Source: Cupriavidus necator (lineage in GTDB: Bacteria > Pseudomonadota > Gammaproteobacteria > Burkholderiales > Burkholderiaceae). Taken from it: a DNA stretch of 32,000 bases. This document shows positions 14,418-32,000 of the stretch, piece by piece. The stretch spans positions 2,640,001-2,672,000 of the forward strand of contig NZ_CP066018.1 of assembly GCF_016127575.1 (NCBI RefSeq), written 5' to 3'. Made by a program: the position numbers and the translations under genes. The notes under the pieces are model-generated. The model saw nothing but the letters and a program-made list of their open reading frames with translations. It ran no database searches and was not told the DNA's origin. Every line of letters starts with the position of its first letter. Positions within the stretch are counted from its first letter, which is position 1.

Positions 14418-14433
14418 CGCAGGGACTGTGCCA
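14418..14433 (-). promoter_or_regulatory. Sigma54 (-24/-12) promoter of the pepA1-A4 operon
   Basis: The minus strand reads caTTGGCACAGTCCCTGCGTTag, i.e. TGGCAC-N5-CTGC with correct GG-N10-GC spacing. It is ~95 nt upstream of the pepA1 ATG and near-identical to the element at 19493-19508. Confidence 0.75.
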
Positions 14434-14464: not shown

Positions 14465-14483
14465 AACTGCCTGAAAACACGGG
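14465..14483 (-). promoter_or_regulatory. Conserved upstream element (candidate enhancer/UAS or IHF-type site) of the sigma54 promoter, copy A
   Basis: Minus strand CCCGTGTTTTCAGGCAGTT, 31 nt upstream of TGGCAC and preceded by the A/T-rich gaaaataaat. It matches 17/19 with copy B at the same spacing. Confidence 0.35.
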
Positions 14484-14665
14484 CGATTTATTTTCGATGT
14501 CGGCTTGCGGGCACTGGCTGCGGGCGCTGCCGCATGCTACGGGTGACGGGCCGCGGCCAACAGGCGGCGTGCCGGTGTTGGCGCGGCCGCGACAGTGGCG
14601 CGCCAAAGGCGATGCGATTGGCAGGGGGCGCCCGCGCGCGGCGTTGCACGCCGGCTTCGCATGGT

Positions 14666-14746: not shown

Positions 14747-16798
14747 ATGTCGGGGCATCCGGTGGCCAGTCTCAAAGAACTGATCCGCAAGTTCCAGAAC
14801 GGCGGTCTCTCCGACGACGAGTTTGTTGCGTCGTTCGAAACGGCGCTGGCGCAGGATCCCACCACGCCCAGCCAGGCCGCGCGCGTGGTCATCGAGGAAA
14901 ACACGCGCTTCCCGTTCCCGCCCGCGGTCTATGCCGAAGTCATGCGGCGCATCGAGCGCCGCGGCGCCACGCAGTACGACGGCGCCACCGAGGCCACGCG
15001 CCTGGCCGGCACGCAGACGGGCTCGCTGTATGCGACCTCGCCCGAGCCGGGCACGCTGCCGCAGGCGGCGCATACCAAGGGCGTGGGCGATACGCTGAAC
15101 GGCCGCTTCGTGCTGGAAGAATGCCTGGGCGTGGGCGGCATGGGCACGGTCTACAAGGCGCTCGACCTGCGCAAGCTGGAAGCCTCGGACCGCAAGCCCT
15201 ATATCGCCATCAAGGTGCTGAACCTGCAGTTCAGCGGGCACCCCAAGTCGCTGATGGCGCTGCAGCGCGAGGCGCGCAAGGCGCAGACGCTGGCGCACCG
15301 GAATATCGTCACCGTCTATGACTTCGACCGCGACGGGCCGGTGGTCTTCCTGACCATGGAATACCTGTCAGGCTCTTCGCTCAACCATGTGCTCAAGGCC
15401 CCGGGCTTCACCGGCATGCCGATGGCGCGCGCCATGTCGATCATCAACGGCATGGGCAATGCGCTGGCATACGCGCACGAGCGCGGCTTCGTGCACTGCG
15501 ACTTCAAGCCCGCCAACGTCTTCCTGACCGCCAACGGCGAGGTCAAGGTGATCGACTTCGGCATCGCGCGCGGCTTCCTGCCGCCGGCCGACGAGTCCGA
15601 CCGGACCGTGTTCGATCCCGGCTCGCTGGGTGGCATGACGCCAGCCTACGCCAGCCCGGAGATGTTCGACCATTGCGAGCCCGACCCGCGCGACGACATC
15701 TTTGCGCTGGCCTGCGTGACCTATGAACTGCTGACCGGCAAGCATCCCTACCAGCGGCTCTCGGCCAACCAGGCGCGCGATGCCGGGCTCAAGCCGGCGC
15801 AGCCGCCGCAGTTGAGCCGCACGCAGTGGAAGACCCTGCGCGAGGCGCTGTCGCTCGACCGCGAGACACGCACGCCCACCGTCGCGCGCTTCCTGCATGG
15901 CATGAGCGCGGTGCCGGTGGTGTCCACGCGGCGCCCCTCGCCGCTGATGGCAGGCGGCGCGCTGGCCGTGCTGGCGGGCGTGTCGGCGATCGGCTACTAC
16001 GCCTGGCATTCGCAGCGCCAGGCCGAAGCACCGGCTGGCGATGCGCGCGTCGAGGCCCCGGCTACACCGGTGCCCGCAGCGCCGGTCATCCCGCCCGCAC
16101 CGGCTGCCCGCCCGGCGGTGCTGTCGATGGCCGACGTCACGAAGATGCTGGCCGCGGTGCCGTGCTCGCTGCTCACCGCCACCCAGCAGGCGCAGACGTT
16201 GCGTGTGCGTGGCTTCCTGGCCGAGAGCGTCGGCGCCGTGCGGCTGCGCGAGCAGCTCAGCGCGTTGCCGGGCGTCAAGGAGCTCAAGGGCGTGTCGATC
16301 GACACCCAGCCGCTGGCCGCCGACAAGTGCGACGTGGCCACCCTGATCGCGCCGTACTGGTCGGGCCACCGCGAAGGGGGCACGGCTTCGTCGCTGCGGC
16401 TGCGCGGCCAGGGCACGCAGCTGACCGAAGGGTCACCGCTGGTGCTGGATCTGCGCACGCCGGCGCGCGACTCCTATGTCTATGTCGATTACTTCGCGGC
16501 CGACGGCAAGGTGGCGCACATGGTGCCGAGCGCGCGCGTGCCCGCCCACCAGGCGCCGCCCAGCCATGGCGCCACGGTTGGCGACGGTGGCGACTGGATC
16601 ATCTCCGGGCCGTTCGGCACCGAGCTGGTGGTGTTGCTGACCACGCCCGCGCCGCTGTTCGATGGCCGGCGCGCCGAGGTCGAGCTGCACAAGGACTACC
16701 TGAAGGCACTGGAAAAGCCGCTGGCGCAGATGGCGCGCACCTATGGCCGGGACCGCATCAGCGCGGACCTGGTGCAGATCTCCACGCGCGCGCGCTGA
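14747..16798 (+). CDS. Transmembrane Hanks-type Ser/Thr protein kinase (non-RD) with a periplasmic DUF4384-like C-terminal domain
   Basis: Track ORF 14534..16798 trimmed to ATG 14747 (MSGHPVASLKELIRKF...); GTG 14723 is an alternative. GVGGMGTVYKA, IAIKVL, HCDFKPANVF (HRD->HCD), VIDFGIA, TPAYASPE. TM segment LMAGGALAVLAGVSAIGYYAW. C-terminal SYVYVDYFAADGKVAHMVPS...ELVVLLT resembles DUF4384. Confidence 0.9.
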   Translation: MSGHPVASLKELIRKFQNGGLSDDEFVASFETALAQDPTTPSQAARVVIEENTRFPFPPAVYAEVMRRIERRGATQYDGATEATRLAGTQTGSLYATSPEPGTLPQAAHTKGVGDTLNGRFVLEECLGVGGMGTVYKALDLRKLEASDRKPYIAIKVLNLQFSGHPKSLMALQREARKAQTLAHRNIVTVYDFDRDGPVVFLTMEYLSGSSLNHVLKAPGFTGMPMARAMSIINGMGNALAYAHERGFVHCDFKPANVFLTANGEVKVIDFGIARGFLPPADESDRTVFDPGSLGGMTPAYASPEMFDHCEPDPRDDIFALACVTYELLTGKHPYQRLSANQARDAGLKPAQPPQLSRTQWKTLREALSLDRETRTPTVARFLHGMSAVPVVSTRRPSPLMAGGALAVLAGVSAIGYYAWHSQRQAEAPAGDARVEAPATPVPAAPVIPPAPAARPAVLSMADVTKMLAAVPCSLLTATQQAQTLRVRGFLAESVGAVRLREQLSALPGVKELKGVSIDTQPLAADKCDVATLIAPYWSGHREGGTASSLRLRGQGTQLTEGSPLVLDLRTPARDSYVYVDYFAADGKVAHMVPSARVPAHQAPPSHGATVGDGGDWIISGPFGTELVVLLTTPAPLFDGRRAEVELHKDYLKALEKPLAQMARTYGRDRISADLVQISTRAR

Positions 16799-16843: not shown

Positions 16844-18067
16844 CTACTTCATGTCGCGCGCCACGCGAAAGCCGTTCTGCGACTGCCGCACGCTGGGGCT
16901 GTACTTGAAGCGCGTGGACGACACCATGTAGTTCGCCCCCTCGCGCCAGGAGCCGCCGCGGATCACGCGTGCGCCGCAGGCGTTCTCGTTCCATACGCGC
17001 CCGTCGGCGGGCGCGCCCTTGTATGAGCTGTGCCAGCAATCGGCCACCCATTCCCACACGCTGCCGTTGACGTCGTGCAGGCCGTACGGGTTGGCCGCGA
17101 ATGTCCCGACCGCGGCCGGCGCATCCTGGCTCCATGGGTCGCCGCAGTCCTTGCAGTTGGCATTGCCCTTGCGCATCTGGTCGCCCCACCAGTAGGCACT
17201 GGCGGTGCCGCCGCGCGCTGCGTATTCCCATTCGGCCTCGGTGGGCAGCCGGTAGGACTTGCCGGTGGTCTTGCTGAGCCAGGCCACGTACTGCTGCGCG
17301 TCGTCCCAGCTGACGTCGCGCACCGGCGCGTTCTTCGCGCTGTCGGCGACGGTGGGGACGCGCTGGCAGCCGCCGGCGTCGGCGCAGGCATTCCATTGCT
17401 CGACCGTGACCTCATAGCGGCCGATGGCAAACGGCTGGCCGATGGTGACGTGGTGCGGGGGCTTCTCGGCGGGATCGCTGGCACTGCTGCCCATGGTGAA
17501 GCTGCCCGCCGGCAGGGGGACCAGCACCGGGCAGGCCGGGCAATCGCGGATCTCGCCGGTGCGCAATGTGGCGCTGACCGCGCCGCCCGCCGCCGCGCCC
17601 GGGCGCAGCGATGCCGTTGCCGGTGGCGCAGCAGGTGGCGCAGCAGGTGACGCAGCGGGCGGCGATGCCGGACGCGCTGCCGCGGCCGGTGCCGGCGGCC
17701 GCGTGACCTGGCCCCCGGCAGAGGTGCCGGAGCGGGGCGGCGGTGCGGGCGCCTGGGCCTTGGGTGCGGAGGCGGACGCCGCCAGCCGCTCCAGGCGCGC
17801 CCTGGCCAGCACCGCGAAGCGTCCGTTGGGGTACTGCTTCAGGTAGGCCTCGTAGTCGCCGGCATAATTGCTGTTCTTGATCGATTCCCAGAAGCTCAGC
17901 TCGTACTGCTCCTCGGTGTTCTTGGGCATGATGCCGGCGAGCAGCAGCGGTTCCGTGGCCGCGGGGCCGGCGGCAGCGGCGGCCGCCTGCGCGGGCAGCG
18001 GCGCGGCGGCGAGCATGGCGGCCATGGCGGCCGTGCGTACGACTGGTAGATTGCGCCACATCTTCAC
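16844..18067 (-). CDS. Secreted FGE-sulfatase-fold (SUMF1/EgtB/PvdO family) protein with an N-terminal helical module and a Pro/Ala linker
   Basis: Signal peptide [58 protein letters not shown] module. FGE domain: [76 protein letters not shown]. Confidence 0.85.
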
Positions 18068-18355
18068 ACCTCGCTGGAGCCGCGGCGATCCCGCTGCATG
18101 CCGGTAGCTGCCGGCACATGCGTCGGGGGCGCATTGTGGTGTTGCCGAGACGTCGACCGGCTTGCTTCAAGATAGCACAGCGCGTGTGTCTCCGGCGGGG
18201 CATTGGCACGCAACCGCGACGCGCCGGGTTCGCTTTTTCCGTGCTTGCGACCTAACCTGAATGACGAATCGCCGAGCGCTGACCAACAAGCAACAAGAAT
18301 GGGCTTTCGGGACAACGTGATCGGGTTTCGGACTGTTATCCGGGAGGCGCCGCGT

Positions 18356-18781
18356 ATGTCCAGACGATTCCTGTTCCGCCTGCTGGCGGTTGCCGCCCTC
18401 GCCGCGGCCCCGTCGCTGTCGCTGTCGACGGCAGCCCCGCCCAATGCCGAGGCCTACATCATCTGGCCGCACGATGGCACGGTCATCAGCGGCGGCAAGT
18501 TCTGGGTGCGCATGGGCCTGCGCAATATGGGCGTGTGCCCCAAGGGCGTCGAGTCGCCGCGCTGCGGGCACCACCACCTGCTGGTCGACACCGAGCTGCC
18601 GCCGCTGGACAAGGAAATCCCTTCGGACAAGAACCACCTGCACTTCGGCGCGGGCGAGACCGACGCGCGCATTGAGTTGCCGCCCGGCAAGCACACGCTG
18701 CAATTGCTGATGGGCGATGCCAAGCACGTGCCGTTCGAGCCGCCGATCTATTCGAAGAAGATCACGATCACGGTGAAATAG
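18356..18781 (+). CDS. Secreted DUF4399-family protein (copy 1)
   Basis: Track ORF trimmed to ATG 18356 (RBS gggagg). Signal peptide MSRRFLFRLLAVAALAAAPSLSLSTA. GHHHLLVD, HLHFGAGETD, LPPGKHTLQLLMGD motifs. Confidence 0.75.
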   Translation: MSRRFLFRLLAVAALAAAPSLSLSTAAPPNAEAYIIWPHDGTVISGGKFWVRMGLRNMGVCPKGVESPRCGHHHLLVDTELPPLDKEIPSDKNHLHFGAGETDARIELPPGKHTLQLLMGDAKHVPFEPPIYSKKITITVK

Positions 18782-18840
18782 CGGTGCAGCGCGCGCCGCG
18801 GAAGCCGAACCTAGGCCGATCAGCAAACAGGGAGAGCACC

Positions 18841-19269
18841 ATGTCCAGACTACTTGCCGCGGCTGTCTTTGCCGCCAGCCTGCTGCTGTCAGCGGTGGTG
18901 CAGGGTGGTTCGACGCCGGCGCCGCCCAACGCCTACCTGTATATCGGCTGGCCCAACGACGGGCAGACGATGCCCGCGGGCAAGCCATTCAAGGTCTGGT
19001 TCGGGTTGCGCAATATGGGGGTGGCGCCAAAGGACGTGAAGTATCCCAATACTGGGCACCATCACCTGCTTGTCGATGTGGACCTGCCGCCGATGGACAA
19101 GGAGATCCCCAATGACCGCAATCACCTGCATTTCGGGGCGGGGGAGACCGAGACCATGATCGAGCTGCCGCCCGGCAAGCATACGCTGCAGCTGCTGATG
19201 GGGGATGACAAGCACATTCCCACCAACCCGCCGGTTTATTCGAAGAGGATCACGATCTACGTGAAGTGA
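18841..19269 (+). CDS. Secreted DUF4399-family protein (copy 2, tandem paralog)
   Basis: Track ORF trimmed to ATG 18841 (RBS gggagag). Signal peptide MSRLLAAAVFAASLLLSAVVQG. Same GHHHLLVD / HLHFGAGETE / LPPGKHTLQLLMGD motifs; roughly two thirds identical to copy 1 by eye. Confidence 0.75.
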   Translation: MSRLLAAAVFAASLLLSAVVQGGSTPAPPNAYLYIGWPNDGQTMPAGKPFKVWFGLRNMGVAPKDVKYPNTGHHHLLVDVDLPPMDKEIPNDRNHLHFGAGETETMIELPPGKHTLQLLMGDDKHIPTNPPVYSKRITIYVK

Positions 19270-19314: not shown

Positions 19315-19443
19315 GTGCGCTGGCGCCGCAAGTGTCGGTCGCCATCCAACATCGACGGGCAAGCTGTTGGCTGCGCGCCGCCAGTGCGCGCTGACGCAGG
19401 CTCGCCGCGCCTCCGCCGCCGGCGCTGGCGGCAAGAAAAATTC

Positions 19444-19462
19444 CCCGTGTTTACAGGCACTT
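19444..19462 (+). promoter_or_regulatory. Conserved upstream element of the sigma54 promoter, copy B
   Basis: CCCGTGTTTACAGGCACTT, 30 nt upstream of TGGCAC and preceded by agaaaaatt. It pairs with copy A (14465-14483, minus strand). Confidence 0.35.
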
Positions 19463-19492: not shown

Positions 19493-19508
19493 TGGCACGC
19501 TCCCTGCG
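19493..19508 (+). promoter_or_regulatory. Sigma54 (-24/-12) promoter of pepB1-pepB2
   Basis: gcTGGCACGCTCCCTGCGAT: TGGCAC-N5-CTGC with GG-N10-GC spacing. The ~69-nt leader to ATG 19588 is highly similar to the pepA1 leader (cctcc.gagcgcgacaccaacccgatgctcga...ccttcctctacc.ggagaccatcATG). Confidence 0.75.
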
Positions 19509-20194: not shown

Positions 20195-20229
20195 AGCGCC
20201 GCGGGGGCGTCCCCGCGGCGCTTTTGTTG
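20195..20229 (+). terminator. Rho-independent terminator/attenuator between pepB2 and the NodT gene
   Basis: agcgccgcgggg-gcgt-ccccgcggcgct followed by tttgttg. Confidence 0.6.
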
Positions 20230-20358: not shown

Positions 20359-21822
20359 GTGCCTGAATCCATCACTGCCTCGCCCGCGGTTGCGTCAACC
20401 GCCGCGCCGCACCGTACCGCCTGGCTGGCCGCGCTGGCCGCCTGCGCGGCATTGCTGGCAGGCTGCGCCGATTTCCGGCCGCCGGTGTACCAGCGCCCGG
20501 AAACCCCGGCCAAGGCCGAATGGACGCGCCAGGAATCGATCACGGTATCGCCGGCCGAAACGGTGCAGCCCAACTGGTGGCTGGGCTTCAAGGATCCTTA
20601 CCTGAACAGGCTGATCGACCAGGCGCTTTACGGCAACTACGACATCAAGGTGCTGGCGGCGCGCATCCGCGTGGCCAACGCGCAGATCGGCGAGGCCCGT
20701 GCCGGCGGGCTGCCGGTGATCGATATCGGCGCCGGTGCGAGCTTCGAGAAGAGCACCGGGCAGAAGTCCACCTGGACCTATAACGCCGGCGCCCAGCTGA
20801 ACTGGGACATCGACATCTGGGGCAAGGTCGAGAAGGGCGTGCAGGCGCAGACCGCCGAGTTCCGCGCCACCGAGGCCGACTGGCGCGCCGGCTACCTGAC
20901 GCTGGTGTCCAATGTATCGACCACTTACTTCCAGATCCTGCAGTTCGACGAGCAGATCGAGCAGCAGGCGCGCACCGTGGCCAAGAACGGGCAGATCCTG
21001 TCGACCTACCAGGCCATGTACCAGAACGGCCTGGTGCCAAAGATCCGGGTGATGCAGCAGCAGGCGGAAATCAACCGCCTGAACAAGGACCTGCTGGAGC
21101 TGCGCCGTTCGCGCGATGTGGCTGAAAACGCGCTGGCCACGCTGGTCGGTGTGCCCGCGGGCAATCTCAAGGTGCCGGCGGGGCGCCTGCAGGACCGCGT
21201 GCAGCCGCCCGCGGTGCCGGCCGGGCTGCCGTCGCAACTGCTGGCGCGCCGCCCGGACGTGGTGGCGGCGGAATACCGCGTGCTGGCCGCGTACAACATC
21301 GTTGGCCAGGCCCGTTTGGCGCAGTTGCCCACCATCAGCCTGACCGCGCGCGGCGGCACCGCCAGCTTTGCGCTGAGCGACCTGCTCAAGTCATTCACCT
21401 TCGGCTTCATGCCCAGCATCAACCTGCCGATGCTCGACCCGAGCGTGCGCGCGCGCGTGAAGACCACCGAGGCGCAGGTGGGCGTGGCGGAAAACGAATA
21501 TGGCCGCACCGTGATGACCGCGTTCGAAGAGGTGGAGAGCGCACTGGTCAATGTCGACGCGCACAAGAAGCAGCGCATCGAGCTGCAGCAGCAGGTTGAG
21601 CAGCTGCGCGTCGTGTCCGCGCAGATCGAGGCGCAACTGAAGGAGGGCGTGGTCTCGCAGCTGGAAGTGTTCGAGACCGAGCGCTCGCTGCTGGCCGCGC
21701 AACTGCAGTTGTTGGCGGTCCACCAACAGATCCTGGCCGACACCGTCACCCTGTACAAGGCGCTTGGCGGTGGCTGGCCCGATACCGACGTGCGCAACGC
21801 GGCGTCGAATCCGCCGCAGTAA
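20359..21822 (+). CDS. NodT-family (OprM/TolC-like) outer-membrane efflux lipoprotein
   Basis: Track ORF trimmed to GTG 20359 (aggaa RBS 5 nt upstream). Lipobox LLAGC|ADF. WWLGFKDPYLNRLIDQALYGNYDIKVLAARI is the typical NodT N-terminus. Two OEP repeats; ends LYKALGGGW. Confidence 0.85.
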   Translation: MPESITASPAVASTAAPHRTAWLAALAACAALLAGCADFRPPVYQRPETPAKAEWTRQESITVSPAETVQPNWWLGFKDPYLNRLIDQALYGNYDIKVLAARIRVANAQIGEARAGGLPVIDIGAGASFEKSTGQKSTWTYNAGAQLNWDIDIWGKVEKGVQAQTAEFRATEADWRAGYLTLVSNVSTTYFQILQFDEQIEQQARTVAKNGQILSTYQAMYQNGLVPKIRVMQQQAEINRLNKDLLELRRSRDVAENALATLVGVPAGNLKVPAGRLQDRVQPPAVPAGLPSQLLARRPDVVAAEYRVLAAYNIVGQARLAQLPTISLTARGGTASFALSDLLKSFTFGFMPSINLPMLDPSVRARVKTTEAQVGVAENEYGRTVMTAFEEVESALVNVDAHKKQRIELQQQVEQLRVVSAQIEAQLKEGVVSQLEVFETERSLLAAQLQLLAVHQQILADTVTLYKALGGGWPDTDVRNAASNPPQ

Positions 21823-26114: not shown

Positions 26115-26867
26115 ATGACTGGTATTGTGCGTATCGACGACGAGGTGCTTGGCTTCGAGGAGTTCGTGCGCTTGCTCAAGCTGACCGGACAGTTCGAAGG
26201 GCTGGTCGAGCAGATGGTGCGCGACAAGCTGACCGTGCACGCGGCAAAGCGGCAGGGCGTGGTGGTCACGCCGGAGGAGATCCAGGAACGCGCGGACCAG
26301 TTCCGCCGCGTGCAGGGCCTGCATCGCGCCGCAGACATGAATCACTACCTGGATGCGCTGAACATCAGCCTGGACGAATTCGAGGCCTTTGTCACCGACA
26401 GCCTGTACCAGGAGCGGATGATGGAGCAGGTGTGCAGCGAGGCCGCGGTGCAGGCGTACTTTGCGCTCAACTCGCCGCGCTTCGACAGCATCGAGGTCAG
26501 CCATATCGTGGTCGACAGCGAGGGCAAGGCCAAGGAGCTGATCTCGTACCTGCAGGATGATCCCGATGCCTTTGCCGAGATGGCGCGCGAGCATTCCATC
26601 GCCGACACGCGCGAGCGCGGAGGCGAGATCGGCAAGGTGCTGCGCGGCTCGCTCAAGACCGATATCGAGGCCAAGGTGTTCAATGCCGAGCCTGGCGACC
26701 TGCTGGGACCGTTCCCGTCGGCTGACCGTTCCTTCTTCGAAGTCTTCCTGGTGCGCGAAAAACACCCGGCCACCCTCGATAGCGAGGTGGCGGTGGAAGT
26801 GCGCCGCCTGCTGCGCGAAGACTGGCTGATGGCCAGGGCGCAGGAACATGTCATCGAAGCCCGCTAG
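26115..26867 (+). CDS. Cytoplasmic PpiC/parvulin-type peptidyl-prolyl cis-trans isomerase
   Basis: No signal peptide (MTGIVRIDDEVLGFEEF...). Rotamase domain SHIVVDSEGKAKELISYLQDDPDAFAEMAREHSIADTRERGGEIGKVLRGSL...EPGDLLGPFPSADRSFFEVFLV. The 3' end overlaps the ABC gene start by 20 nt. Confidence 0.8.
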   Translation: MTGIVRIDDEVLGFEEFVRLLKLTGQFEGLVEQMVRDKLTVHAAKRQGVVVTPEEIQERADQFRRVQGLHRAADMNHYLDALNISLDEFEAFVTDSLYQERMMEQVCSEAAVQAYFALNSPRFDSIEVSHIVVDSEGKAKELISYLQDDPDAFAEMAREHSIADTRERGGEIGKVLRGSLKTDIEAKVFNAEPGDLLGPFPSADRSFFEVFLVREKHPATLDSEVAVEVRRLLREDWLMARAQEHVIEAR

Positions 26868-29800: not shown

Positions 29801-29958
29801 CGGTCATCATCGCGCACCGGCTCAGCACCATCATGCAGGCCGATAAGATCCTGGTGCTGTATGAAGGCGCCATCGTCGAGCAGGGCCGGCATGAGGAGCT
29901 GATCGAGCGCAAGGGCATGTATTTCCAACTGGTGCAGAAGCAACTGAGCGCAGCATGA
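26848..29958 (+). CDS. Peptidase-containing ABC transporter (PCAT): 2 x cNMP-binding-like domains + C39 Cys-peptidase + 6-TM ABC domain + NBD
   Basis: 1036 aa. CNB-like 1 is about aa 30-140 and CNB-like 2 about aa 160-285. C39 domain: EEMDC(334)GAACLAMICRHYG, HWEGYHYVVVYG, WVADP (Cys/His/Asp present). NBD: GRSGSGKTT, LSGGQIQRLCIARAL, LLVFDEATSALD, IIAHRLS. Confidence 0.92.
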   Translation: MSSKPASASGEPAAPPAPDQPEAGSALAAFLATVEILSVLVPEELARLAEAAQVLTFGFGDTVCNAGEAAPGLFIVKSGSVRVFNEEHGKEISMGVRKAGEVFADIALLRDYRHESSVRASGKTELLLIPRSVGEPVVAGNPAALAFITSYVAISSAGGFVARLFDLRGKLDKQELEDAVRSVGVKRVAAGKEILKQDGREDRRLYVVRQGTVRIVRSEEGSEYPLATLGQGDIFGERACVMRQEQLASAIADTDVRLLVIPEKTVQLILERNPRLREVLEERIRVLDRELHRQKKLAERRKRPVLLDLHSKPELGEKLIRRFALVEQAEEMDCGAACLAMICRHYGIPMTLGKLRELANVTTQGATLDSLARAGEALGFTTRGVQCTRDSLMGFELPFIVHWEGYHYVVVYGISSRWVWVADPAIGFRKMSAEEFERGWSGTCLLFTPGESMTQLSVSRSPWLRFIGYLAPYKRILAHLFLATFVIQMLGVVPPLIIQNILDGVVVHQNVGLLNLLIAGLIISNVFSQLMSTIRAYLANFMVRNMDFAMMSHFFKHTLSLPLSFFAKRKTGDIFARFQENQTIRAFLTESTVTTALNLLMVFIYFTIMFLYNVKLTLLLIAFVIPIAALTVVVTPKVKTYAREVFAASTDAKAYLMETLGGAETVKGMGIERPVRLRWERKYAKALDAQYRAQAFHILVGLVSQLLNAATTIAVLWVGATLVLERELTIGQLIAFNAFMGSVLAPLMGLVALWGQLNDAGVAMERLGDVLDLEPEQKPQDVLSRVMLPDLQGEIVMKDLYFRYGGEDTPYVLENISFAIRPGEMVAIVGRSGSGKTTLAKLLVGFYKPTEGSMTVDGYDLNVIDAAFYRAQVGYVMQSNLLFSGTIAENIACGDDSPDRRRIEEVARMADAHAFISKLPLGYEQVVGERGIGLSGGQIQRLCIARALYHDPRLLVFDEATSALDTQSESNILANMQEILRGRTAVIIAHRLSTIMQADKILVLYEGAIVEQGRHEELIERKGMYFQLVQKQLSAA

Positions 29959-31271
29959 AGCTATACAACCAGGGAGCCACCCCCGCCTCGGTCACGTCCC
30001 CGGTGTCGTTCGCCGGGCTGATCGAGAAGATCGAGATCCTGCGTTCCACGCTGCGCTGGTCGTCGCGGCTTGACCGGCCGGAGATCGAGAAGCTGCTCAA
30101 GCAGGTCACCACGCTGCGCGACGAGGTGATGGGGCTGTCGCACAAGGAGCGCTTCGTGCAGGCCGCGTCGGCCGAGGCGGCCCCGCCGCAGGAAGAAGTC
30201 GAGCGCATGCCGCGCGCGCGCCGGCAGGCACTGGTTGAGCGCAGCTTTATTTTCGAAGGGACCTTCGGCGACAACCCCAAGTTGCTGGAGGCACTGGAGA
30301 TTGCCGAGAAGGCGGCGCCGACCGACCTGCCGGTGCTGATCGATGGAGAGAGCGGCACCGGCAAGGAGCTGATGGCCAAGGTGATCCATGCCAATGGCTC
30401 ACGCACCGACAAGCCGTTTATCTCGGTCAACTGCGGCGCCATCCCCGACAGCCTGCTTGAATCCGAGCTGTTCGGCCACAAGAAGGGCGCCTTCACCGGC
30501 GCCAGCAATGACCGCCGCGGCAAGTTCGAGAGCGCGCATACCGGCACCATCTTCCTGGACGAGATCGGCGAGCTGCCGCTGACCGGGCAGGTCAAGCTGC
30601 TGCGCGTGCTGGAGGCGCACGAGATCCAGCGCGTGGGCTCGGACGAGGCGATCTCGGTCGATACGCGCATCGTCGCGGCGACCAACAAGGACCTGCGCCG
30701 CATGAGCCAGGCCGGCACCTTCCGCGAAGACCTGTTCTATCGCCTGAGCGTGATCCACGTCAGCCTGCCGTCGCTGCGCGAGCGGCGCGACGAGATCCCG
30801 CTGCTGGTGTCGTACTTCAGTGACGAGGCCGCCGGCATGCTCAAGCGCCGGCCACTCAAGCTGACGCCGCGGCTGCGCGACTTCCTGCTGCACTACGACT
30901 ACCCGGGCAATATCCGCGAACTGCGCAACCTGATGTACCGGCTGAGCTGCCTGGCCGGCGACACCGCCGACCTGGCCCAACTGCCGCAGGACATCCGCCC
31001 CAGGCCCGCCGCACTGGCGGTGGTGGGCAATGGCCCCGCCGCTGCCGACATTGCCATGGCGACGTCCCTCAGCGAAGCCAAGCGCGCCGCCAGCGACGAG
31101 GCCGAGCGGGCCTTCCTCGAACGGGGCTTGCAGGAGGTCGGCGGCACCGTCGCCGAACTGGCGCGGCGCTTCGACATGAACCGCTCGCACCTGCAGATGC
31201 TGCTGAAGAAGCACGGCATCCACTCGAAGGATTTCCGCGCCAACCGGCAGGCCGAAGGCGGCAAGGGGTAG
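29955..31271 (+). CDS. Sigma54-dependent enhancer-binding protein (bEBP) with a non-receiver ~115-aa N-terminal region and a Fis-type HTH
   Basis: GESGTGKELMAKVIH (Walker A), ESELFGHKKGAFTGA (GAFTGA loop), FLDEIGELP, RVGS, RIVAATN, FREDLFYRL, C-terminal GGTVAELARRFDMNRSHLQMLLKKHGI. The ATG overlaps the ABC stop (ATGA, 29955-29958). Confidence 0.9.
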   Translation: MKLYNQGATPASVTSPVSFAGLIEKIEILRSTLRWSSRLDRPEIEKLLKQVTTLRDEVMGLSHKERFVQAASAEAAPPQEEVERMPRARRQALVERSFIFEGTFGDNPKLLEALEIAEKAAPTDLPVLIDGESGTGKELMAKVIHANGSRTDKPFISVNCGAIPDSLLESELFGHKKGAFTGASNDRRGKFESAHTGTIFLDEIGELPLTGQVKLLRVLEAHEIQRVGSDEAISVDTRIVAATNKDLRRMSQAGTFREDLFYRLSVIHVSLPSLRERRDEIPLLVSYFSDEAAGMLKRRPLKLTPRLRDFLLHYDYPGNIRELRNLMYRLSCLAGDTADLAQLPQDIRPRPAALAVVGNGPAAADIAMATSLSEAKRAASDEAERAFLERGLQEVGGTVAELARRFDMNRSHLQMLLKKHGIHSKDFRANRQAEGGKG

Positions 31272-31299: not shown

Positions 31300-32000
31300 T
31301 CAGGCGTCCAGCTCGGGATTGACCAGGGTCTTGTCAGAGCCGTACGGGTCCGCCGCACGCAGCACCACCACCGACACGTTGTCGCGGCCGCCGGCATCGA
31401 GCGCCATCTGCACCAGCGTCGGCGCGGCCTGCGCAACGTCCTGCTGCGCCAGCACCGCCGCGATGTCGTCATCGTCGACCTCGTTGCTCAGGCCATCGCT
31501 GCACAGCAGGTACACGTCGCCATCGGCGACCTCGGTCAGCAGCTGCTCCGGCGCCAGCGTCGGGGCCGCGCCGACGGCGCGTGTGATGGTGTTCTGCGCG
31601 GGATGGTGGCGCGCTTCTTCCGGGGTGATCAGCCCGCGCGCCAGCAGGCGCTCGACCTGGTTGTGGTCGCGCGTGAGGCGCGCGAACTGGCCGCCGCGCA
31701 GCCGGTACAGGCGGCTGTCGCCGGCCCACACGCAGGCGCAACGGCGATCGCCCGCCAGCATTACCACCACCGTGCTGCCGATGCAGCGCACGCCCAGGCG
31801 CGCCGCTTCATCGACCAGCGCCAGGTTCACGCCCTGCAGCGCCGCGCGCGTGGCGTCGACCCGGTCTTCCAGCCGGGGCTGCGGCGGCAGCGTGGCCAGC
31901 GCCTGGACCACCGCCTGGCTGGCGAAGTCTCCCACGGCATGGCCGCCCATGCCGTCGGCCACTGCCCACAGGTCCTGGCTGGGCAGATCCAGGCAAGCGT
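31300..32000 (-). CDS. PP2C-family Ser/Thr protein phosphatase (5' end beyond the right edge of the window)
   Basis: The track ORF starts at M 31962, but the frame stays open to 32000 (..ACLDLPSQDLWAVADGMGGHAVGDFAS). The ADGMGGH motif is internal in PP2C enzymes. LLCSDGLSNEV and GGRDNVSVVVL are the C-terminal PP2C motifs. Confidence 0.85.
   Translation of the reverse strand, partial: ACLDLPSQDLWAVADGMGGHAVGDFASQAVVQALATLPPQPRLEDRVDATRAALQGVNLALVDEAARLGVRCIGSTVVVMLAGDRRCACVWAGDSRLYRLRGGQFARLTRDHNQVERLLARGLITPEEARHHPAQNTITRAVGAAPTLAPEQLLTEVADGDVYLLCSDGLSNEVDDDDIAAVLAQQDVAQAAPTLVQMALDAGGRDNVSVVVLRAADPYGSDKTLVNPELDA

Follow-up and report, generated by a model that had tools for sequence, protein, structure and literature searches.

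Background

Which regulator switches on the double-glycine (GG) leader peptide genes of a secretion island in Cupriavidus necator, and through which part of the protein could that regulator itself be controlled? The island lies in the window analysed here, a stretch of 32,000 nucleotides (G000:C1:2640001-2672000) from a three-replicon genome of 7.4 Mb, and the gene in question is the open reading frame (ORF) at 29955-31271 (+), which encodes a sigma-54 enhancer-binding protein (EBP) of 438 aa. EBPs are normally classed by their N-terminal sensory domain, and the N-terminal module of the subfamily treated here is unclassified. The island, which brings together a type I exporter of the peptidase-containing ABC transporter (PCAT) type, GG-leader peptides and kinase/PP2C/FHA signalling, is undescribed yet widespread. 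Searches of the literature on sigma-54 and double-glycine peptides, on cNMP/C39 ABC exporters and on kinase/FHA/type I secretion returned no description of this system; a paper on a Bordetella sigma-54 regulator concerns a different gene and a small RNA.

In our assessment the EBP is likely to be a sigma-54 activator specific to one pathway, that of a conserved island for peptide secretion, equipped with an N-terminal input or interaction hairpin and made as the last product of the exporter operon. According to the mechanism that we propose, the protein would be synthesised at the end of that operon, usually by translational coupling, and its helix-turn-helix (HTH) would bind CCAACA-N13-TGTTGG palindromes that precede the -24 element of every GG-leader operon by ~147 bp. 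A bend with its centre ~36 bp ahead of this element, of IHF type in many relatives, would then bring the EBP to the sigma-54 holoenzyme, and ATP hydrolysis would open the promoter. The N-terminal hairpin may be the input or interaction module that sets the activity of the protein, its most likely input being either the Ser/Thr kinase and PP2C pair of the island or a protein partner. As the activator gene is itself part of the exporter operon, the cargo genes would fire only after that operon has been expressed ('machine first, cargo second'). Should the module receive Ser/Thr phosphorylation or a signal of exporter status, it would represent a new input route to sigma-54 transcription and would also account for the timing of peptide production in Gram-negative bacteria.

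The activator protein

The ORF encodes an intact sigma-54 EBP, an assignment confirmed by domain matches, alignment and structure prediction; rpoN-dependent activation is predicted from the promoters and palindromic upstream sites near the gene and from the rpoN of the genome. Pfam places Sigma54_activat (PF00158) at residues 105-269, with 236.4 bits (cut-off 20.2; E 1.9e-70), and AAA_lid_14 at residues 275-350, so that the AAA+ sigma-54 interaction domain with its lid (residues 105-350) occupies 30267-31004 (+). Full-length orthologues share 75-100% identity with the protein, and the nearest protein matches come from C. necator and its relatives. All three hallmark motifs were found, namely Walker A (GESGTGKE, residues 131-138, 30345-30368 (+)), GAFTGA (residues 178-183, 30486-30503 (+)) and Walker B with D202 and E203 (30546-30563 (+)), and their columns are invariant across the orthologues and 12 paralogous EBPs of the same genome. 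A Foldseek comparison of the AlphaFold2 model with the Protein Data Bank (PDB) gave the AAA+ domains of FleQ, ZraR, FlrC, NtrC1 and PspF as best matches, with template-modelling scores to the target of ~0.9; the matches were to AAA+ domains only and were uninformative on the N-terminal hairpin.

The Fis-type HTH (residues 398-420, TVAELARRFDMNRSHLQMLLKKH, 31146-31214 (+)) scored 16.9 bits (E 0.005) in a separate scan with Pfam HTH_8, short of the cut-off of 22, yet the C-terminus is alignable to the HTH of FleQ, the NCBIfam alignments of NorR, NtrC, AtoC and GlrR extend to the final model positions, and AlphaFold2 predicts helices at residues 399-405 and 410-419 with a predicted local distance difference test (pLDDT) score of 88-90. 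The recognition-helix region, MNRSHLQxLLKKHG, is conserved from Cupriavidus to Nitrosococcus. The model was obtained with a 38-sequence alignment (25 orthologues and 12 paralogues added) and has a mean pLDDT of 80, exceeding 90 in the AAA+ domain; it replaced an unusable one (mean pLDDT 51) that had been based on a low-diversity alignment of 16 sequences. The first-pass annotation, made by eye, had reported an intact AAA+ core and HTH in a protein that lacks a receiver, GAF or PAS domain, and both parts of that description hold.

With regard to the sensory side, Pfam recognised neither Response_reg nor any other domain in residues 1-124 at E<=10, and no GAF, PAS, V4R or ACT-type sensor was recognised N-terminal to the AAA+ domain in Pfam and NCBIfam scans, including those of 11 family members. 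The label 'GAF' that some sources attach to this N-terminus is not borne out by the domain scans. Neither did Pfam match an FHA domain in the protein, and its genome contains no FHA-type EBP. Since all NCBIfam EBP equivalogs (NorR, NifA, NtrC, PspF and others) fall well short of their cut-offs, the protein can be placed in no named EBP family; the NorR model reached 328.8 against 476, NifA 311.1 against 528.85, and the two PspF models, TIGR02974 and PRK11608, 256.9 against 443.55 and 227.7 against 529, respectively. The response-regulator EBP equivalogs, also far under their cut-offs, align only from residue 88 or later.

Peptide promoters and their upstream sites

Pattern searches identified a -24/-12 promoter ahead of each of the two peptide operons in the window, at 19493-19507 (+) for pepB1-pepB2 (TGGCACGCTCCCTGC) and at 14419-14433 (-) for the divergent operon (TGGCACAGTCCCTGC). 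A third element, TGGCACGCGCCTTGC, lies 510 nt beyond the window end (at 32510 (-)) and precedes another leader peptide. The same pattern, TGGCAC-N5-YTGC, recurs at GG-leader peptide promoters across genera: such promoters precede GG-leader genes in 40 cases among related loci and also in distant gammaproteobacterial islands. The first-pass annotation, too, had taken the promoters of the peptide genes to be the only clear sigma-54 promoters of the window. The peptides themselves match no Pfam or NCBIfam family. One further element at 17158-17172 (+), TGGCATTGCCCTTGC, has a perfect GG-N10-GC core and is probably a chance match, because it lies antisense within the FGE-sulfatase gene and has neither a peptide gene nor a palindrome nearby.

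Comparison of the three upstream regions of this genome revealed a shared palindrome, CCAACA-N13-TGTTGG, which we take as the candidate EBP binding site or upstream activating sequence (UAS). It occurs at 19346-19370, ahead of pepB1-pepB2, and at 14557-14581, ahead of the divergent promoter, in both cases beginning 147-148 bp upstream of TGGCAC; the latter copy is intergenic, 14747 being the most likely start of the kinase gene (14747-16798). The exact form CCAACA-N13-15-TGTTGG has three matches in the 7.4-Mb genome, of which two are the sites just described; the remaining match, on a different replicon, is a hairpin. A degenerate form has 20 matches, three of them upstream of the three promoters of the island. 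In related loci almost all peptide promoters have the palindrome ahead of them, frequently in two copies: within 1.46 Mb of such loci, 35 of 62 palindromes fall into the 1.1% of sequence upstream of peptide promoters, where 0.68 would be expected. The distance is also kept: Pandoraea, Noviherbaspirillum, Thauera, a Burkholderiales metagenome-assembled genome (MAG) and Thiodiazotropha all have the palindrome at -145 to -148. The genome-wide palindrome scan additionally returned five identical copies of CCCACACTGAATCCATAGGTGTGGG (G000 C1:1782996, C1:1988335, C1:3757316, C2:102440 and C2:795170), which are probably the ends of a repeated mobile element.

Two other elements, at 14465-14483 and 19444-19462, had earlier been put forward as the sites of the EBP. 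Neither is palindromic, they lie only ~35-50 bp from the -24 element, and we rejected them as UAS in favour of 14557-14581 and 19346-19370. They are more likely IHF-type bending sites, to judge from their position and resemblance to the consensus. The first, at -43, reads TTTCAGGCAGTTG on the promoter strand, with two mismatches to the IHF consensus WATCAANNNNTTR, and the second, at -42, shares its position with consensus IHF sites of Pandoraea, Noviherbaspirillum, Thiodiazotropha and the C. basilensis group. Sites with at most one mismatch occur at -41 to -43 in 9 of 42 promoters, a result reached by only 0.4% of shuffles, and Thiodiazotropha shows the same. The genome encodes HU/IHF-family proteins and a single rpoN. 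A UAS near -147, a bending site near -42 and the -24/-12 element together make up a classical sigma-54 promoter architecture.

A strong intrinsic terminator (20195-20222 (+); 12-bp stem with 11 GC pairs, followed by a T run) lies between pepB2 and the exporter operon, whose first gene, for an outer-membrane protein (OMP) lipoprotein, starts near 20359. As this terminator separates the pepB genes from the operon, the EBP would be made from the exporter operon and act on separate cargo operons. We therefore rejected obligatory autoregulation from the 19493 promoter, since the terminator is strong and follows pepB2, with read-through being possible. Relatives are arranged in other ways. In the gammaproteobacterial locus L085, a -24/-12 promoter (546-560) precedes the OEP gene that heads the exporter/EBP operon and has an AACA-N14-TGTT palindrome at its -142 position, which implies autoregulation there; a like promoter precedes OEP genes oriented separately from the EBP operon in two further loci (L082:1326 (-) and L084:1724 (-)). 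By analogy, positive feedback is plausible, here possibly via read-through of the terminator.

Operon position, synteny and distribution

The EBP start codon overlaps the stop codon of the ABC exporter gene in an ATGA (29955-29958 (+), read in gcagcATGAagc): the ATG at 29955-29957 overlaps the TGA at 29956-29958, which ends a 1036-aa ORF, as had been read at first pass. The exporter encoded by that ORF consists of tandem cNMP_binding domains, Peptidase_C39, ABC_membrane and ABC_tran. The 80 best related loci (Cupriavidus, Pandoraea, Caballeronia, Noviherbaspirillum, Thauera and others) have the ABC and PpiC genes always directly 5' of the EBP gene, the ABC gene immediately so in 78 of 78 loci with enough sequence, and most show the full operon order of OMP, double-FHA protein, HlyD, PpiC, cNMP/C39-ABC and, last, EBP. 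The succession from exporter operon to EBP is kept in essentially all 80 loci. It is also found in Nitrosococcus, in Thiodiazotropha and in two metagenomic contigs named only Gammaproteobacteria, one of which has a short gap in place of the overlap. The 4-nt start/stop overlap occurs in 63 of 79 related loci and, by gene coordinates, in Nitrosococcus halophilus and Candidatus Thiodiazotropha as well; the remaining loci have gaps of up to 300 nt, most of them below ~110 nt. The PpiC-type protein (26115-26867) has a partial match to NCBIfam TIGR04500, 'putative peptide maturation system protein' (84.5 bits, cut-off 180), which hints at a link to another peptide-maturation system.

Such a strict arrangement invites an explanation in which the EBP and the exporter touch each other, as overlapping gene arrangements are often seen with interacting products. 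The hairpin could bind a cytoplasmic part of the export machine, for which the paired cNMP-type domains in the ABC protein and the FHA domains in the membrane protein are the candidates. The activator would then be held inactive at the membrane and released by exporter occupancy, a secretion feedback resembling the PspA-PspF pair or the membrane sequestration of other regulators. We consider this unlikely. The invariable ABC to EBP order and the mostly kept 4-nt overlap, from Burkholderiales to Chromatiales, speak for it. Against it, the C. basilensis group has gaps of 48-109 nt instead of the overlap, which is also absent from a few further loci; the N-terminal module, discussed below, bears on it from both sides.

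The island has a sporadic distribution. A back-translated pattern scan for the module across a collection with one genome per species (185,579 species) gave 404 genomic stretches, and only four other genomes of an even 400-genome sample of the order carry it, which makes the distribution island-like. The EBP subfamily ranges from Burkholderiales to Nitrosococcus and Thiodiazotropha. One 2.5-kb contig from a MAG labelled Actinomycetota (L074) encodes an EBP ~76% identical to that of the window and is probably a binning error, given that the gene is proteobacterial, the bin actinobacterial and the contig very small.

Signalling genes accompany the activator. A convergent PP2C phosphatase gene, recognised by its domain matches, follows it directly (31300-32000 (-), continuing to 32076, past the window end), and a PP2C gene is near the EBP gene in 70 of the 80 loci, usually convergent and immediately downstream, as well as in Nitrosococcus. 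Kinase, PP2C and double-FHA genes were present with the EBP in each island inspected. The interval that separates the kinase gene from the peptide promoter encodes an FGE-sulfatase-domain protein (16844-18067 (-)) and two tandem DUF4399 proteins (18203-18781 (+) and 18784-19269 (+)). These are probably members of the system, since the same families adjoin the kinase in the distant islands L084 and L085; two metagenomic Gammaproteobacteria islands have the kinase and an FGE-sulfatase protein in common, alongside DUF4399 proteins and small genes in runs. Nitrosococcus halophilus Nc4 (CP001798.1, L081:1-218) has two EBPs in its island, the second one of 445 aa with an N-terminal FHA domain, Sigma54_activat and HTH_8, encoded directly upstream of the orthologous exporter operon. 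At the equivalent place in Thiodiazotropha there is a 453-aa frame containing FHA (G401:C55:33982-34188).

The kept synteny, the -24/-12 promoters in many genera and the palindrome at a fixed distance are all comparative, and together they support the proposal: with high probability, this EBP is the activator dedicated to the GG-leader peptide genes. Several observations weigh against this assignment. The genome has 19 full-scoring EBP matches, and the 18 besides this one could in principle act on the peptide promoters. At the third promoter the palindrome (32621-32645) has a variant, symmetric half-site (CCGACA...TGTCGG) and a distance of 123 bp, the IHF-like site of the 19493 promoter is poor, with four mismatches, and two gammaproteobacterial loci have no palindrome of the exact form upstream of their peptide promoters. 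The strict promoter pattern was not found in most Caballeronia loci. Finally, the enrichment of the palindrome overstates its independence, as the related genomes are kin. Taken to its end, this line of thought would have the EBP serve another regulon and a different EBP drive the peptide promoters, for which the 18 further EBPs and the second, FHA-type EBP of the Nitrosococcus island could be cited. We hold that to be very improbable: there is no FHA-EBP in the genome at hand, the exporter-EBP synteny is essentially universal, and peptide promoters are nearly the only places with the palindrome, to which a conserved HTH corresponds.

The N-terminal module

Ahead of its ATPase domain the activator carries a conserved hairpin of ~55 residues, an unclassified module that is almost confined to one EBP subfamily. 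In the AlphaFold2 model, a disordered and variable stretch (residues 1-16) is followed by helices at residues 19-34 and 41-72 (pLDDT 71-77), a variable linker (residues 73-87) and a short helix (residues 86-95) that leads into the AAA+ domain. The family-specific two-helix module (residues 17-72, 30003-30170 (+)) is conserved at the level of the ATPase core. Both residues 1-16 and the linker (30171-30215 (+)) vary in length and sequence between orthologues, and residues 67-84 have a pLDDT below 50. The hairpin has the signature ...LIEKIEILRSTLRW...LRDEVMxLSHKERF, and in the module S18, E24, E27, R30, S31, T32, R34, W35, R55, S62, E65 and R66 are invariant or nearly so. In a 75-sequence set S31 is conserved in 74 and T32 is threonine in 70; among 120 more distant homologues, for which the source names only Gammaproteobacteria, Nitrosococcus and Thiodiazotropha, W35, S62, R34 and R55 are present in all 120, S31 in 119, and position 32 is T or S in 115.

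Profile searches recognised nothing in this region. Pfam gave no match for residues 1-124 and no consistent match for 11 diverse members, NCBIfam was likewise without a match, and a profile search of PDB sequences with the N-terminus returned nothing under E 0.96. With the N-terminal 104 residues, phmmer found 50 matches among 1.84 billion representatives, nearly all of them to this EBP family; those inspected are fragments or full-length family members, apart from one that is probably a coiled-coil artefact. The first-pass annotation had described an N-terminus of ~115 residues lacking a known fold, rich in Ser/Thr and predicted helix, for which a standard receiver or sensor might yet emerge from profile searches. 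None emerged, and the absence of a known domain and the helices stand, but the extension measures ~100 aa and its 15 Ser and Thr residues among 104 are only a mild enrichment. A metagenomic protein of 414 aa (P0168) has the hairpin and the AAA+ core, and past about residue 265 an unrelated, repeat-like tail replaces the lid and HTH; it may be a fusion or a misassembly.

What might the hairpin respond to? One tentative answer is a phospho-switch, in which the Hanks-type kinase of the island phosphorylates the module and the convergent PP2C reverses the mark. Candidate residues would be S31 and T32 of RSTLRW, or S15 and S18 just before helix 1, and phosphorylation would either break an inhibitory hairpin or create a phospho-Thr dock for an FHA protein, so that peptide transcription tracks the kinase signal. 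The conservation of S31 and T32 and the near invariance of S18 and S62 fit this answer, as do the company of PP2C, kinase and double-FHA genes and the second EBP of Nitrosococcus, whose FHA domain shows that phospho-Thr signalling reaches sigma-54 transcription in that organism. Against it, S31 and T32 sit within a predicted helix, which would be an unusual kinase substrate, and the most divergent members have R, Q or A in place of T32. To our knowledge, an invariant Trp at +3 is not among the commonly described FHA preferences, which also counts against a dock. The tie between kinase and EBP is one of gene company, and by analogy with type VI secretion systems (T6SS) the target of the kinase, FHA and PP2C proteins may be the secretion machine and not the activator (PMC10482370). 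If it existed, the switch would be a Gram-negative counterpart of peptide-pheromone circuits. Its strongest form, which we regard as quite improbable, has the kinase sensing the exported peptides as pheromones in the periplasm and the hairpin (RSTLRW...SHKERF) serving as the input that the kinase phosphorylates and PP2C resets; this would amount to a sigma-54 peptide quorum or autoinduction circuit of Gram-negative bacteria, with a Hanks kinase and an EBP replacing the histidine kinase and response regulator.

The same conservation can be read as that of a protein interface, since the charged surface residues E24, E27, R30, R34, R55 and E65 are conserved as catalytic residues are. This would suit binding of the hairpin to the exporter, as would the finding that the module occurs in almost no protein outside the EBP family, but conserved amphipathic helices fit self-association equally well. 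A hairpin devoted to assembly only, as a coiled coil that dimerises the EBP on its palindromes or aids ring formation, would leave the protein constitutively active and its regulation to the amount of exporter-operon mRNA. The heptad-like hydrophobic positions (19, 22, 26, 29 and 33 in the first helix; 44, 47/48, 51, 54, 58 and 61 in the second) and the existence of EBPs lacking sensory domains (PMC7175178) favour it. Expression-level control with positive feedback is plausible here, as the exporter/EBP operon of L085 and the OEP genes of L082 and L084 have -24/-12 promoters. We nevertheless find it rather doubtful that assembly is the whole role of the module, because the invariant polar and charged residues and W35 exceed what a generic coiled coil needs, and a regulatory tether would suit both the flexible linker and the helix that aligns with the linker region of NtrC1. 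The reading that we prefer remains that of a pathway-specific activator with the hairpin as its input or interaction module.

Comparison with known systems

Two features of the system are already known, namely EBPs without classical sensory domains (PMC7175178) and EBPs of secretion clusters, in that EBPs encoded inside T6SS clusters (VasH, Sfa2) activate sigma-54 promoters of auxiliary or orphan clusters elsewhere (PMC10482370). New here are an N-terminal module that fits no class, the fact that this module is tied solely to a cNMP-PCAT type I island, and the proposed sigma-54 control of GG-leader genes. VasH of Vibrio cholerae and Sfa2 of Pseudomonas aeruginosa resemble our EBP in being encoded within a secretion-machine cluster, and the hierarchy is alike, as auxiliary clusters follow the machine there and cargo genes would do so here. 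A Ser/Thr kinase, a PP2C phosphatase and an FHA protein are likewise common members of T6SS clusters; there, however, the kinase pathway acts on the apparatus and not on an EBP. Further differences are that the machine here is a type I PCAT exporter instead of a T6SS, and that the N-terminus is a helical hairpin of 55 aa, for which phmmer returned almost only members of this EBP family.

PspF of E. coli and HrpR/HrpS of Pseudomonas syringae share with the protein an AAA+ domain plus HTH and the lack of receiver, GAF, PAS and V4R domains. These regulators are controlled in trans by a partner (PspA in the one case, HrpV/HrpG in the other), and HrpR/S belong to a secretion cluster. In contrast, the island has no recognisable gene of PspA or HrpV type, and PspF begins at the AAA+ domain, whereas the EBP has a conserved extension of ~100 aa and scores under the PspF cut-offs. 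To NtrC1 and DctD the likeness lies in a helical element ahead of the ATPase, known in those proteins for negative control by the helical linker, and residues 89-104 align with the linker-AAA+ junction of NtrC1 (1ny5 from residue 130). The EBP differs from both in having no receiver domain or phospho-acceptor Asp, so any signal must be of another kind than that of NtrC1.

A parallel in overall logic is offered by the class II bacteriocin and competence regulons of Gram-positive bacteria (ComABCDE, PlnABCD), which likewise combine GG-leader peptides, a cleaving C39-ABC exporter and a dedicated activator. Their activator is a LytTR response regulator paired with a histidine kinase, whereas the candidates here are a sigma-54 EBP and a Hanks kinase, PP2C and FHA proteins, and the export route here crosses a Gram-negative envelope with the help of HlyD and an outer-membrane factor.

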